A stretch of 3,772 nt of DNA from a virus (taxonomy: Duplodnaviria > Heunggongvirae > Uroviricota > Caudoviricetes). The notes beneath the pieces were generated by a model, which saw only the letters and a program-made list of their open reading frames with translations, was not told where the DNA came from and made no database searches. Made by a program: the position numbers and the translations under genes. The stretch is taken from IMG/VR virus record IMGVR_UViG_2648501165_000014; one strand, written 5' to 3'. Shown piece by piece: positions 817-3,772 of the stretch (its first letter is position 1; each line of letters starts with the position of its first letter).

Positions 817-1782
817 TTATCCTCTGAAACCAGGCGGAATTTCTGTATCCGGTTCAGAAATATGATTAACACAACGCTGTACAGGTGAACGTCCCAGGCG
901 GATGACCAGTTCGTCCCATTTTTCGCGGAGCTTTGACGGGCTCATGATGTTTTTTACCCAGAATGGATCTCGCTGAACCCGACCAAACATTTCGCAAATT
1001 TGTCTGTGGCTTCTGCCATCCAGCATCCGCATTGTGCGCACGTCATTGGCCCAGGCAGTCCAGTTAGGCTCTTTTGGTCGCATGATCTCGCCATCATCAC
1101 TGGCTGCCTGTTCGTAGAGACCCACGATCCGCCCCCAGATCCACTGCGCACACGCCAAATCCTCCCTGCTACCCCACTGGCGTTTTTTCGCACTAAACAC
1201 AACCGCGTCGGAGTTCCGGGTTAAAAAATCCTGTTCAGTCGTCTGCGGGTCCGGTTGCGAAGCTTCCGGACGAAAAGTGTTTTTATTCTCTGTAGTAATC
1301 TCTGTTGTATTCTCTGTAAGATCATCAGGCCATTTTGACCCGATGACATTGGGTCGTTTTGAACCAATGGAGCGTTTCATTTTGACCTCTTCCATCGTGT
1401 CATTTTGACCTGATGGAGCGGCGCATTTTGAACCGATGGATTCGCTCAATTTGCCACCATCTAAAAGCTCGCTCCCATAGTTGATCGTGTAGAAATTGGT
1501 CATATCGCGCTTTGATTTATTGAGCTTTTCACAACGCAAAAGCCCCAGCGTTTTCAGACTTGCAAACGCGCGCTTTAACGTTGACTCTGACCAGAATGGG
1601 AACTGTTCCAGCCATTGTTCCGTTGTGTTATAAATCCAGCGAACACCATCACATTCCATGCCGGAGTTGGTATCTCTCAACCAGTAGTGCAGTTGTTGCA
1701 AAACAATGGCTTCGTTTAAGCCAATTTTCATTGCCAGCTGCGTGTTTATAACCAGTGGGCGTTCAGCAAAAAGAAGGCTCAT
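817..1782 (-). CDS. Replication initiation protein, lambda O-like (phage replisome-organiser N-terminal winged-helix domain) with embedded iteron origin
   Basis: Uninterrupted frame 817-1836. The preferred start is ATG at 1782-1780 (MSLLFAERPLVINTQ...) with a GGATGG-like SD; the ORF-track start at 1836 is TTG with no SD. The N-terminal region (FAERPLVINTQLAMKIGLNEAIVLQQLHYWL...STLKRAFASLKTLGLL) resembles the O/DnaD-like replisome-organiser winged-helix. The central linker is encoded by tandem DNA repeats (SIGSK...SIGSKRPNVIGSK and TENTTEITTEN), as the lambda O gene contains ori-lambda iterons. Confidence 0.8.
   Translation of the reverse strand: MSLLFAERPLVINTQLAMKIGLNEAIVLQQLHYWLRDTNSGMECDGVRWIYNTTEQWLEQFPFWSESTLKRAFASLKTLGLLRCEKLNKSKRDMTNFYTINYGSELLDGGKLSESIGSKCAAPSGQNDTMEEVKMKRSIGSKRPNVIGSKWPDDLTENTTEITTENKNTFRPEASQPDPQTTEQDFLTRNSDAVVFSAKKRQWGSREDLACAQWIWGRIVGLYEQAASDDGEIMRPKEPNWTAWANDVRTMRMLDGRSHRQICEMFGRVQRDPFWVKNIMSPSKLREKWDELVIRLGRSPVQRCVNHISEPDTEIPPGFRG
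1286..1318. repeat. Three tandem 12-bp repeats (core TCTCTGT) in an AT-rich stretch flanking the iterons; candidate DNA-unwinding element of the origin
   Basis: TTCTCTGTAGTA / ATCTCTGTTGTA / TTCTCTGTAAGA, with the TCTCTGT core at 1287-1293, 1299-1305 and 1311-1317 (exact 12-bp period). They lie next to the iterons on the 3' side of the array in the O-gene reading direction and are flanked by T-rich sequence (GTGTTTTTATTC 1278-1289). This matches the iteron-then-AT-rich layout of lambda-type origins. Confidence 0.45.
1331..1460. repeat. Iteron array (putative replication origin) inside the O-like gene: about 5-6 direct repeats, consensus CATTTTGA(C/A)CnGATGGAGC, ~24-bp phasing
   Basis: Seen directly: CATTTTGACCCGATGACAT (1331), CGTTTTGAACCAATGGAGC (1355), CATTTTGACCTCTTCCATCG (1379, second half inverted), CATTTTGACCTGATGGAGC (1401), CATTTTGAACCGATGGATT (1425), and a degenerate CAATTTGCCACCATC (1448). 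Start-to-start spacing is 24, 24, 22, 24, 23 bp. Confidence 0.7.
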
Positions 1783-2222
1783 AATTCCATCCAGCTTTTT
1801 GTTGGTATTGCTGTCGATACGCAAGTTTGAAAGCAATTGCTTTTTCTATAAGTTCGTCAGTTTCACGATCCACTACGGCAGGATCAGCAAAAAGCAGTCC
1901 GGACTCCACCACATCGCCATATTCTTTGNNNNNNNNNNCACGTGATGCTTTTTCCGTCAGTAATTTCACGATACAACCTGAAATCATTAATCCGGATAGC
2001 CTCCATAATTGCAGGCACTAGCGCCGTGAACTTTTCACGCTTATCCCTGGTGTCGATAGCCTTCCAGCGTTCAAATATCTTCACTCGATTAACGCCAAGC
2101 GCTCGCTGATCAATCGCGCCACCTTCATATGTGACACGCTGAACATCGATGTTCGGGCGCTCTTTCAAAGCCGGCGCTCGTCTGATGTAAGAGATAAAGA
2201 AATCGATGAGCGAAGTAATCAT
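1763..2222 (-). CDS. Hypothetical protein of unknown function, reading frame interrupted by a 10-N assembly gap (apparent frameshift; possibly annotated as pseudogene or two fragments)
   Basis: The frame from ATG 2222-2220 (SD GGGAGAG 6 nt upstream; the ORF track's TTG at 2240 is less likely) is open down to the N-run and terminates 14 codons beyond it. A second frame is open from just upstream of the N-run to the stop at 1765-1763, running 55 codons past the gap. The simplest reading is one gene of about 150-160 aa whose frame is scrambled by the placeholder gap. The product is not recognisable. Confidence 0.45.
1929..1938. other. Assembly gap (run of 10 N)
   Basis: Literal nnnnnnnnnn in the sequence. 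The length is probably a placeholder, so the true sequence and length are unknown. Confidence 0.95.
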
Positions 2223-2457
2223 GATTGTCTCTCCCGGCAAATGGGTATCCGAAGAGCAGTTAATTGCGCTGAAAGGAATAAAAAAAGGTACGTTAAAAAA
2301 GGCCCGGGAAAAATCGTTTATGGAAGGAAGGGAATATAAGCATGTCGCTCATGACGGTATGCCATGGGATAACAGTCCATGCTTTTACAACCTGGAAGAA
2401 ATTGATCGCTGGATTGAGCGCCAGGCATCAGCGAGACCAAGACGTCATCTTACTTGA
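2206..2457 (+). CDS. xis: Excisionase-like protein (Xis; recombination directionality factor)
   Basis: Small basic ORF (83 aa from ATG 2206, or 78 aa from ATG 2221) immediately upstream of, and co-oriented with, the integrase (19 bp from the xis stop to the int ORF start). The sequence (WVSEEQLIALKGIKKGTLKKAREKSFMEGREYKHV...PCFYNLEEIDRWIE) has the character of enterobacterial prophage excisionase-like proteins. Stop is TGA at 2455-2457. Start codon is ambiguous, as neither ATG has a strong SD. Confidence 0.7.
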   Translation: MSEVIMIVSPGKWVSEEQLIALKGIKKGTLKKAREKSFMEGREYKHVAHDGMPWDNSPCFYNLEEIDRWIERQASARPRRHLT

Positions 2458-2491
2458 CTAAAAGCCACACTAACTAATGAGAGAAGTTGAA

Positions 2492-3772
2492 ATGAAATAT
2501 CCGACAGGCGTGGAAAACCATGGAGGGAAATTACGTATCTGGTTTGTTTATAAAGACGTAAGAGTCAGGGAAAATCTGGGGGTTCCTGACACAGCAAAAA
2601 ACAGGCGCGTTGCAGGTGAACTACGCTCCTCTGTTTGTTACGCAATAAAAACTGGTGTTTTCGACTATGCAAAACAGTTTCCCTCCTCACGCAATCTGGA
2701 AAAATTTGGTGAGGCCCGACAAGATTTAACCATAAAAGAACTGGCTGAAAAATTTCTGGCACTGAAAGAAACTGAAGTCGCCAAAACATCACTCAACACA
2801 TACCGTGCCGTCATCAAAAATATCCTGAGCATAATCGGTGAAAAAAATCTTGCCTCATCGATTAATAAAGAAAAATTACTGGAGGTTCGTAAAGAGTTAC
2901 TGACTGGATACCAGATCCCCAAAAGTAACTATATTGTTACACAACCAGGGAGATCGGCTGTAACTGTAAATAATTACATGACAAATCTTAACGCCGTGTT
3001 CCAGTTTGGTGTTGATAACGGTTACCTGGCAGATAATCCGTTTAAGGGGATCTCGCCATTAAAGGAATCAAGAACCATTCCGGATCCTCTTTCGCGGGAA
3101 GAATTTATCCGTCTTATCGATGCGTGCAGAAATCAGCAAGCAAAAAATTTATGGTGTGTTTCTGTTTATACTGGAGTTCGCCCTGGTGAGCTGTGTGCAC
3201 TTGGATGGGAGGACATAGATCTGAAAAATGGAACAATGATGATCAGGAGAAATTTAGCAAAAGACCGTTTCACGGTACCAAAAACACAGGCGGGAACCAA
3301 TCGGGTCATTCATCTTATTAAGCCAGCAATCGACGCTCTCCGGAGTCAGATGACATTAACGAGACTGAGCAAAGAGCATATCATTGATGTTCACCTCAGA
3401 GAGTATGGCAGAACAGAAAAACAAAAATGCACCTTTGTTTTTCAACCTGAAGTGTCAGCGAGAGTAAAAAATTATGGTGACCATTTTACCGTTGACTCAA
3501 TAAGGCAGATGTGGGACGCAGCGATAAAACGTGCCGGACTCCGCCATCGAAAATCATATCAGTCGAGACATACTTATGCCTGCTGGTCGCTGACAGCTGG
3601 TGCTAACCCGGCATTTATAGCAAACCAGATGGGCCATGCAGATGCGCAAATGGTATTTCAGGTATACGGAAAATGGATGTCTGAAAACAATAATGCACAG
3701 GTAGCTTTGTTAAATACACAGTTAAGCGAGTTTGCCCCAACCATGCCCCATAACGAAGCAATGAAAAATTAA
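2492..3772 (+). CDS. int: Tyrosine site-specific recombinase (phage integrase, lambda-Int family with N-terminal arm-type DNA-binding domain)
   Basis: The ORF is open from ATG 2477. The preferred start is ATG 2492 (MKYPTGVENHGGKLRIWF...), which has a purine-rich SD-like GAGAGAAG 5 nt upstream, whereas 2477 has none. The C-terminal catalytic domain shows the conserved tyrosine-recombinase signature residues: R in VYTGVRPGEL, the H-x-x-R box in SRHTYACWSL, H in MGHAD, and the nucleophile Y in VFQVYGKWM. The N-terminus (GGKLRIWFVYKDVR) resembles the arm-binding domains of enterobacterial prophage integrases. Stop is TAA at 3770-3772, the window end. Confidence 0.9.
   Translation: MKYPTGVENHGGKLRIWFVYKDVRVRENLGVPDTAKNRRVAGELRSSVCYAIKTGVFDYAKQFPSSRNLEKFGEARQDLTIKELAEKFLALKETEVAKTSLNTYRAVIKNILSIIGEKNLASSINKEKLLEVRKELLTGYQIPKSNYIVTQPGRSAVTVNNYMTNLNAVFQFGVDNGYLADNPFKGISPLKESRTIPDPLSREEFIRLIDACRNQQAKNLWCVSVYTGVRPGELCALGWEDIDLKNGTMMIRRNLAKDRFTVPKTQAGTNRVIHLIKPAIDALRSQMTLTRLSKEHIIDVHLREYGRTEKQKCTFVFQPEVSARVKNYGDHFTVDSIRQMWDAAIKRAGLRHRKSYQSRHTYACWSLTAGANPAFIANQMGHADAQMVFQVYGKWMSENNNAQVALLNTQLSEFAPTMPHNEAMKN

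Follow-up and report, generated by a model that had tools for sequence, protein, structure and literature searches.

Several well-described replicons keep their origin inside the gene for their own initiator. In phage lambda and in the Stx phages 933W and P27 (six-iteron), the origin occupies the middle part of the initiator gene and contains four to six dyad-symmetric iterons spaced about 20–24 bp apart (PMC7466680). The origin oriL of phage SPP1 is likewise located within the gene for its initiator G38P, where direct repeats are followed by an AT-rich DNA-unwinding element (DUE), and the system has been reconstituted in vitro (PMC6316719). In the plasmid pSK41, the winged-helix fold of Rep binds four Rep boxes that lie centrally in rep; the central segment, encoded by the origin, serves as a linker that can be dispensed with, and host specificity resides in the C-terminal domain, with modules being swapped (PMC5703833). 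Plasmid Rep is reported to read one strand of a DUE in a sequence-specific manner (PMC4081077). Here we analyse a 3,772-nucleotide stretch of DNA, IMG/VR virus record IMGVR_UViG_2648501165_000014 (hereafter the window), which is a piece of a Qin-type lambdoid prophage in Escherichia coli with its insertion site beside rspB. Positions 1278–1461 are probably the replication origin of this prophage, situated inside its own initiator gene where that gene encodes the linker. The origin itself is of a known kind, the lambda type, and calling it is by itself a routine gain in annotation. The new and interesting part, as far as a limited literature search allows that to be said, is the conservation of a 12-bp repeat within it at the nucleotide level across phyla, which is worth following up.

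A sequence-only reading of the window had proposed iterons and a triplet of 12-mers within the initiator gene, and these tandem repeats are real: there are five good iterons plus one degenerate copy, and three 12-mers of exact period. The motif CATTTTGAMC, allowing at most one mismatch, matches five times in the window, always on the + strand and at spacings of 24, 23, 23 and 23, a number of matches reached in 0 of 200 shuffles (mean 0.91). A repeat finder and Tandem Repeats Finder (TRF) independently recovered the array at 23 nt, so the period of 24 bp first claimed has to be corrected to 23, and TRF detected no further repeat array in the window besides the iterons and the 12-mers. All six units sit in the linker-coding part of the gene, between the two domains of the protein. 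Every unit is partly palindromic, with the coding-strand consensus ATC-n-GGTCA-AAA-TGACC-n-GAT, and, as palindromic units would lead one to expect, the array folds more stably than shuffled sequences (z −2.4 and −3.5). Across 38 units from 10 taxa, the iteron consensus is CGATCAGGTCAAAATGACCCGAT.

Analysis of the reading frames indicates that the iterons are constrained as DNA and not as a protein repeat. Because the period of 23 nt is not a multiple of 3, the iteron core is read through all three frames, yielding GSK, GQN and VKM in this one gene, and the same holds across taxa. The earlier proposal that the units encode SIGSK repeats stands for three of the six, which specify (S/V)IGSK; the other good units use the other two frames, giving PSGQND and EEVKM. 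Where the frame would make the TGA of TCA-AAA-TGA a stop codon, iteron copies change precisely that base, to TGC, TGG or CGA. The sequence-only reading had allowed that the repeats might prove to be a protein repeat and nothing else; the use of three frames, together with the fixed synonymous sites described below, argues instead for constraint on the nucleic acid.

Nor is the iteron sequence peculiar to this element, as had been supposed. The same core at 22–24 bp phasing accompanies the same family of N-terminal domains (N1) in E. coli, Proteus, Edwardsiella, Staphylococcus and Limosilactobacillus, and linker repeats at a spacing of 22–24 bp or multiples of it are clear in about 50 of the 76 N1-family genes examined. 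A Staphylococcus aureus phage protein whose N-terminal domain is 42% identical carries GGGTCATTTTGACCT three times, 22–23 bp apart, which is essentially the E. coli iteron. In other N1 branches the core is shifted, as with GGGCAAATTGCCC in Pantoea and Erwinia.

The 12-mer array directly adjoins the last iteron, on the side where lambda opens. Its coding-strand consensus is ACAGAGAnTACw, its period is exactly 12 by both the repeat finder and TRF, and TCTCTGTWGTAW is matched twice in the window against 0.03 expected matches. GC content is 27.5% over positions 1280–1319, in a gene of about 50% GC; the array forms the least stable 40-bp window in the gene (−44.9 versus a mean of −55.1 kcal/mol), and neither strand shows any single-stranded structure (minimum free energy 0). 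We call the array an unwinding element because it abuts the last iteron, is poor in GC, is the least stable window and has structure-free strands. A hairpin or cruciform within the array was considered and rejected on the same folding energy of 0, and an Rfam search at a permissive threshold matched no known RNA element. A GATC sequence at 1320–1323 lies exactly between the 12-mers and the first iteron and may be a Dam/SeqA site at the origin; this GATC junction (GAT CTT ACA GAG) is also present in Stx2_14040 and in several Enterobacterales homologues.

The triplet had first been viewed as an oddity reminiscent of oriC 13-mers, and it turns out instead to be a module common to initiator genes across phyla, those of phages of Proteobacteria and Bacillota included. 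A 48-nt query matched about 100 phage records, including phages of Acinetobacter, Staphylococcus, Bacillus, Klebsiella, Erwinia, Pseudomonas and other hosts as well as Stx phages, and nearly all annotated matches fall within replication-initiator genes. In one Stx phage, four 12-mer units stand beside iterons of an entirely different kind, and the encoded protein is unrelated at either end. At least 120 IMG/VR contigs contain the exact two-unit pattern, in a database where we estimate that chance would hardly ever produce it, and among the matches listed 118 of 120 contigs have it in the middle of an open reading frame (ORF), in the frame T-E-x-T, in proteins of 260–370 amino acids. At least 16 of 20 representatives of these proteins match replication-initiator PHROGs. 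Around the 12-mer, at least 7 N-terminal and at least 18 C-terminal domain clusters are joined in many combinations, with clusters defined at E 1e-8 with coverage limits (single-linkage at E 1e-4 merged nearly all domains). Limited literature searches with full-text motif strings and by topic found no description of the 12-mer.

Codon usage within the motif points to selection on the nucleotides themselves. To avoid circularity, the homologue sets of N1 and of N2, a second and unrelated-looking N-terminal domain family from viral contigs, were gathered through the protein domain alone. In the N1 set (80 genome loci), 109 of 111 glutamate codons in the motif are GAG, compared with 358 of 824 elsewhere in those genes (43%); for N1 genes with less than 45% GC, the counts are 28 of 30 within the motif and 98 of 279 outside it. 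The N2 set gives GAG in 89 of 89 motif positions and in 283 of 935 elsewhere (30%). Among 56 representatives below 60% identity, all 62 units use GAG (background 41%) and all 62 have A at the four-fold degenerate base ahead of it, whereas codon 3 is A-n-T with a free middle base that gives I, N, T or S. Fixed synonymous sites beside a non-synonymous position left free to vary are the mark of selection on DNA or RNA and not on peptide. All three frames of the unit are open, and the constant T-E-x-T frame is probably explained either by selection for an acidic linker that does no harm or by a history of in-frame exchanges. In 60 of 91 motif-bearing genes the least stable window is at most 40 nt away from the motif, where about 8 would be expected by chance.

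The same cassette also lies outside any long ORF. The small rolling-circle-type Bacillus plasmid pBSG3 (NC_014104; L292 1505–1610) carries three ATCTCTGTAGTA units together with three CTTTCCCTGTAGG iteron-like repeats 22–23 bp apart, upstream of rep, in DNA without a long ORF and in a frame that differs from T-E-x-T. The 2.3 kb examined around the cassette revealed no initiator gene, and the cassette itself may act as a decoy of a phage origin, be a hitch-hiking site or form a second origin.

The protein encoded around these repeats supports their assignment to an origin of the lambda kind. Although labelled 'hypothetical protein' in RefSeq, the 321-amino-acid product has a 100% identical counterpart in the viable phage PhiR42_1, annotated there as 'DNA replication protein O', and the genes of two further viable phages, HannyBb and mEp460, are 97–98% identical. 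A full-length match (E 1e-91) links the product to PHROG 391, 'replication initiation O-like'. Pfam yields no family at E values up to 0.01, neither Phage_rep_O nor RepA_N, and NCBIfam gives only a weak match to a DnaT tail. Residues 147–294 align by BLASTP to residues 135–270 of lambda O (34% identity over 148 amino acids, E 1e-26), and this alignment sets the last iteron and the 12-mers opposite iteron 4 and the AT-rich tract of lambda. The earlier proposal of a lambda-like layout inside an O-like gene is thus borne out, with a matching order of elements and a C-terminal half homologous to lambda O. Structure prediction, with homologues of the domain as the alignment, gives the N-terminal domain a winged-helix fold, nearest to the N-terminal domains of RepA_N initiators and of DnaD/DnaB; these homologues, retrieved by protein homology search, are mostly short fragments without a precomputed Pfam domain. 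The feature that this domain shares with the lambda O family is limited to a Y(G)W-type motif, and an (I/V)xYW motif is common to all N-terminal clusters of 12-mer-bearing initiators.

The N1 family is found in Enterobacterales, Pseudomonas, Moraxellaceae, Bacillaceae, Staphylococcus, Lactobacillaceae, Clostridia and other groups. Some taxon assignments within it are odd: copies 100% identical to the E. coli domain are filed as Veillonella, Bacillota and Collinsella metagenome-assembled genomes (among loci L132, L133, L178, L189 and L193), and two identical contigs of 41,200 bp are filed as Nocardioides and Micromonospora, with an initiator gene of 33% GC and Staphylococcus-type iterons. Such filings look like mis-binning or contamination, and lists of N1 taxa need to be used with care.

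From the repeats, reading frames, conservation, homologies, predicted fold and duplex stability observed above, we infer how iteron binding, unwinding, helicase recruitment and reading of the 12-mer might proceed. Dimers of the N-terminal winged-helix domain would bind the five or six dyad-symmetric 23-bp iterons, the resulting nucleoprotein complex would open the adjoining 12-mer array, and the lambda O-like C-terminal domain, perhaps aided by the DnaT-like tail, would recruit the host helicase system. The 12-mer would then be a conserved connecting module between many different N- and C-terminal initiator domains, with selection acting on its sequence as such; because its fixed C and G positions exceed what low stability needs, it is presumably read by something. 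As reader we prefer a surface conserved in the superfamily of winged-helix initiators, which would act on one strand after unwinding, much as plasmid Rep acts at DUE 13-mers, a candidate made plausible by the (I/V)xYW motif common to all N-terminal clusters. The T-E-x-T frame may have been retained since the acidic linker that results from it is harmless. We also put forward, tentatively, a wider claim that we hold possible rather than probable: ACAGAGAnTACw could be a previously unrecognized, sequence-specific DUE core that phages, prophages and some plasmids of Proteobacteria, Bacillota and other phyla have in common in their origins, which would together form a large superfamily. Either a conserved winged-helix surface or a universally conserved host replication protein would recognize the unit, as single or double strand, and the same bases would provide linker codons, a dual-coding state kept over a very long time.

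Several observations weigh against this account. The N-terminal 107 amino acids of the initiator have no Pfam match and no BLASTP similarity to the N terminus of lambda O, and helicase recruitment is a guess, since no P or DnaC-type gene follows the initiator. The purine-rich sense strand could point to a mechanism based on transcription or an R-loop. Several N1 homologues (for example Neobacillus, TTTKTTT variants) have no tandem 12-mer, and the canonical 12-mer was looked for and is absent in lambda ori and SPP1 oriL, the two best-studied models; the motif is thus not indispensable for the architecture. The near-perfect frame lock, 118 of 120 contigs among the matches listed, suggests a role at the protein level too, and the conservation counts are not phylogenetically independent, which makes the P-value calculated for the 62 units no more than indicative.

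Four other explanations deserve weighing against a lambda-type origin with a sequence-read unwinding element. If the repeats were only a repetitive protein linker (SIGSK, TENT), any similarity of the DNA would be a by-product of peptide coding, and it is true that they lie within an ORF, that they encode recognizable peptide repeats and that the 12-mer is always read T-E-x-T. Yet a period that is not a multiple of 3 gives GSK, GQN and VKM from one core, in a single gene and across taxa; the 12-mer has its synonymous sites fixed and its non-synonymous site free; and on pBSG3 the cassette stands outside any long ORF. The frame and synonymous-site analyses have already largely refuted this explanation, and we regard it as highly improbable. 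The 12-mer array could instead be a recombination joint of fixed frame, at which N-terminal domains with their iterons are swapped against C-terminal modules, with no direct role in initiation. N- and C-terminal clusters do combine variously exactly at the motif with the frame preserved, and a shared stretch of 24–48 nt is near the minimal length for homologous exchange. Selection for future recombination would, however, hardly fix specific bases across phyla, and the adjacency to iterons, the minimal duplex stability and the non-coding plasmid cassette all argue that the array acts directly in cis; the shared sequence may have led to module shuffling instead of resulting from it. We consider an exchange joint without function in initiation unlikely.

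A mechanism through transcription seems to us about equally unlikely. Here the purine-rich initiator mRNA would form an RNA:DNA hybrid, as an R-loop or primer, on the pyrimidine-rich template beside the iterons, and the CTG/CTA triplets could serve as primase starts. Lambda ori requires transcriptional activation, the orientation of the 12-mers relative to the gene is constant, and a purine/pyrimidine asymmetry exists both here and in the AT-rich tract of lambda; but the coding frame and the iterons fix the orientation equally well, and the sequence-specific positions include a fixed T and C beyond the purine run. The true origin could also lie elsewhere in the phage, with the iterons serving as regulatory sites for autorepression, copy control or the exclusion of related phages by titration. 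Plasmid iterons have control functions too, plasmid-borne phage origins can titrate replication factors, and pBSG3 carries a lone cassette of iterons and 12-mers with no initiator gene in the 2.3 kb examined. Against this stand the TRF result, with no other repeat array in the window, and a layout that agrees with the mapped origins of lambda, SPP1 oriL and pSK41, and we judge a purely regulatory role very unlikely.

The lambda-type origin that we favour has damaged surroundings in the window (Table 1). Positions 1–2172 and 2171–3772 match segments of PhiR42_1 that are 5.05 kb apart, with the deletion joint at 2171/2172. Relative to PhiR42_1, the 5.05-kb deletion removed the 5′ end of the cII-like gene, the promoter region, cro (dicC), cI (dicA), ydfB/C/D, recE and other genes. 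The upstream pR-cro-cII transcription unit, which in an origin of the lambda type drives and activates ori, is present in intact PhiR42_1 and deleted from the window, and no sigma-70-like promoter was found upstream of the initiator. Because the regulatory region is deleted, the replicon here is a remnant. The idea that the element could replicate autonomously after excision finds no support for this copy, which has the 5.05-kb deletion, no promoter-like site and no helicase-loader gene. In strains such as UTAK-1 and CE10, an IS3-family element is located exactly at the 2171/2172 joint. A run of ten Ns at 1929–1938, within the truncated cII-like/YdaT gene, represents about 18 nt of PhiR42_1 sequence and is a mask or gap; a masked insertion sequence was considered at this position and rejected, as the alignment places the IS3 of related strains at the 2171/2172 joint instead. 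The region 1278–1465 is found in 1,871 of 5,426 complete E. coli genomes, about one third.

Table 1. Features of the 3,772-nucleotide window, with positions counted from its first letter
Feature	Position	Strand	Basis or remark
Initiator gene, 321 aa, O-like	817–1782	−	PHROG 391 match, PhiR42_1 identity
N-terminal domain, predicted winged helix (family N1), aa 1–107	1462–1782	−	presumed iteron-binding domain
Iteron array, six 23-bp units (five good, one degenerate)	1323–1461	−	repeat search, TRF, motif count
Iteron cores	1331–1340, 1355–1364, 1378–1387, 1401–1410, 1424–1433	+	CATTTTGAMC, at most one mismatch
Degenerate sixth iteron core CAATTTGCCA	1447–1456	+	+23 after fifth core
AT-rich purine/pyrimidine-asymmetric tract holding the 12-mers	1278–1322	.	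base composition
Three tandem 12-mers, coding strand ACAGAGAATACA / ACAGAGATTACT / ACAGAGAATAAA	1284–1295, 1296–1307, 1308–1319	−	encode TENTTEITTEN; presumed unwinding element, where the helicase would enter
Lambda O-like C-terminal domain, aa 197–294	901–1194	−	BLASTP against lambda O
C-terminal 21 aa (VQRCVNHISEPDTEIPPGFRG), DnaT-tail-like	820–882	−	14/21 residues identical, E ~0.01
SAM methyltransferase gene	1–357	−	
DUF977/Ren-like gene (PHROG 'Ren-like exclusion'), immediately downstream of initiator	354–776	−	occupies slot of P in lambda
cII-like/YdaT-family gene, 5′-truncated, upstream of initiator	1763–2172	−	contains N-run; stops at deletion joint 2171/2172
xis	2206–2457	+	
int	2477–3772	+	

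No helicase-loader gene of the P or DnaC type follows the initiator in the window, where the DUF977/Ren-like gene is found, and no P, DnaC or DnaB gene follows it in intact PhiR42_1. The last 21 amino acids of the initiator resemble the extreme C terminus of E. coli DnaT, both standing at the chain end, a likeness at the sequence level that is suggestive only. Among non-redundant motif-bearing initiators, a downstream loader or helicase gene was recognizable, with a limited reference set, for 2 of 25 that have a DnaT-like tail versus 27 of 54 that lack one. Through the tail, the phage may draw on the restart machinery of its host instead of a P or DnaC of its own, which we offer as a lead and not as a result.

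Unwinding elements are usually thought to need AT-richness only, whereas here specific bases are fixed across phyla inside coding sequence. The 12-mer gives an experimental handle on how initiators of the lambda O, DnaD and RepA_N types open DNA and pass it to the helicase, would explain the shuffling of replication modules at one precise joint, and supplies a compact signature with which to locate origins in uncultured phage genomes.

Among described systems, lambda shows the same order of elements as the window, with an N-terminal DNA-binding domain, iterons, an AT-rich element and a C-terminal domain, and its AT-rich, purine-asymmetric tract likewise lies immediately downstream of the iterons. 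Iteron spacing, at first taken to be distinct, is similar in the two, with lambda iteron starts 20, 24 and 23 bp apart. The lambda iteron centre TCAAAACGA resembles TCAAAATGA here, each with an A-tract centre, and the central TCAAAAYGA of the window is alike, whereas the iteron arms differ. The C-terminal domain of lambda O is homologous to that of the initiator here, but the N-terminal domain is without detectable sequence similarity; the initiator in the window also has an extra DnaT-like tail and, unlike that of lambda, no P gene after it. In place of a discrete 12-mer array, lambda has only two single inverted TCAGAG(A/G)AT units. These opposed units make up the known inverted repeat to the right of the AT-rich tract of lambda ori (L003 863–892); they are like single 12-mer cores, and one is read S-E-N-S.

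Initiators of RepA_N plasmids, such as pSK41 Rep (PDB 4pta), follow the same logic of central binding sites that encode a linker. The initiator here differs in being phage-borne, in having no Pfam RepA_N match and in a C-terminal domain that is lambda O-like and not DnaG-binding, and pSK41 is absent from the plasmid matches of the 12-mer. The SPP1 initiator has a different N-terminal domain, and its DUE consists of AACAATGAWAAC-like units with no tandem CAGAGA motif. The DUE 13-mers of oriC and of iteron plasmids (RK2 and others), as well as DnaA-trios, are likewise short tandem units that adjoin initiator sites within an unwinding element. They have another sequence and another period and are non-coding, whereas the 12-mers of the window are codons of the initiator and are common to unrelated hosts.

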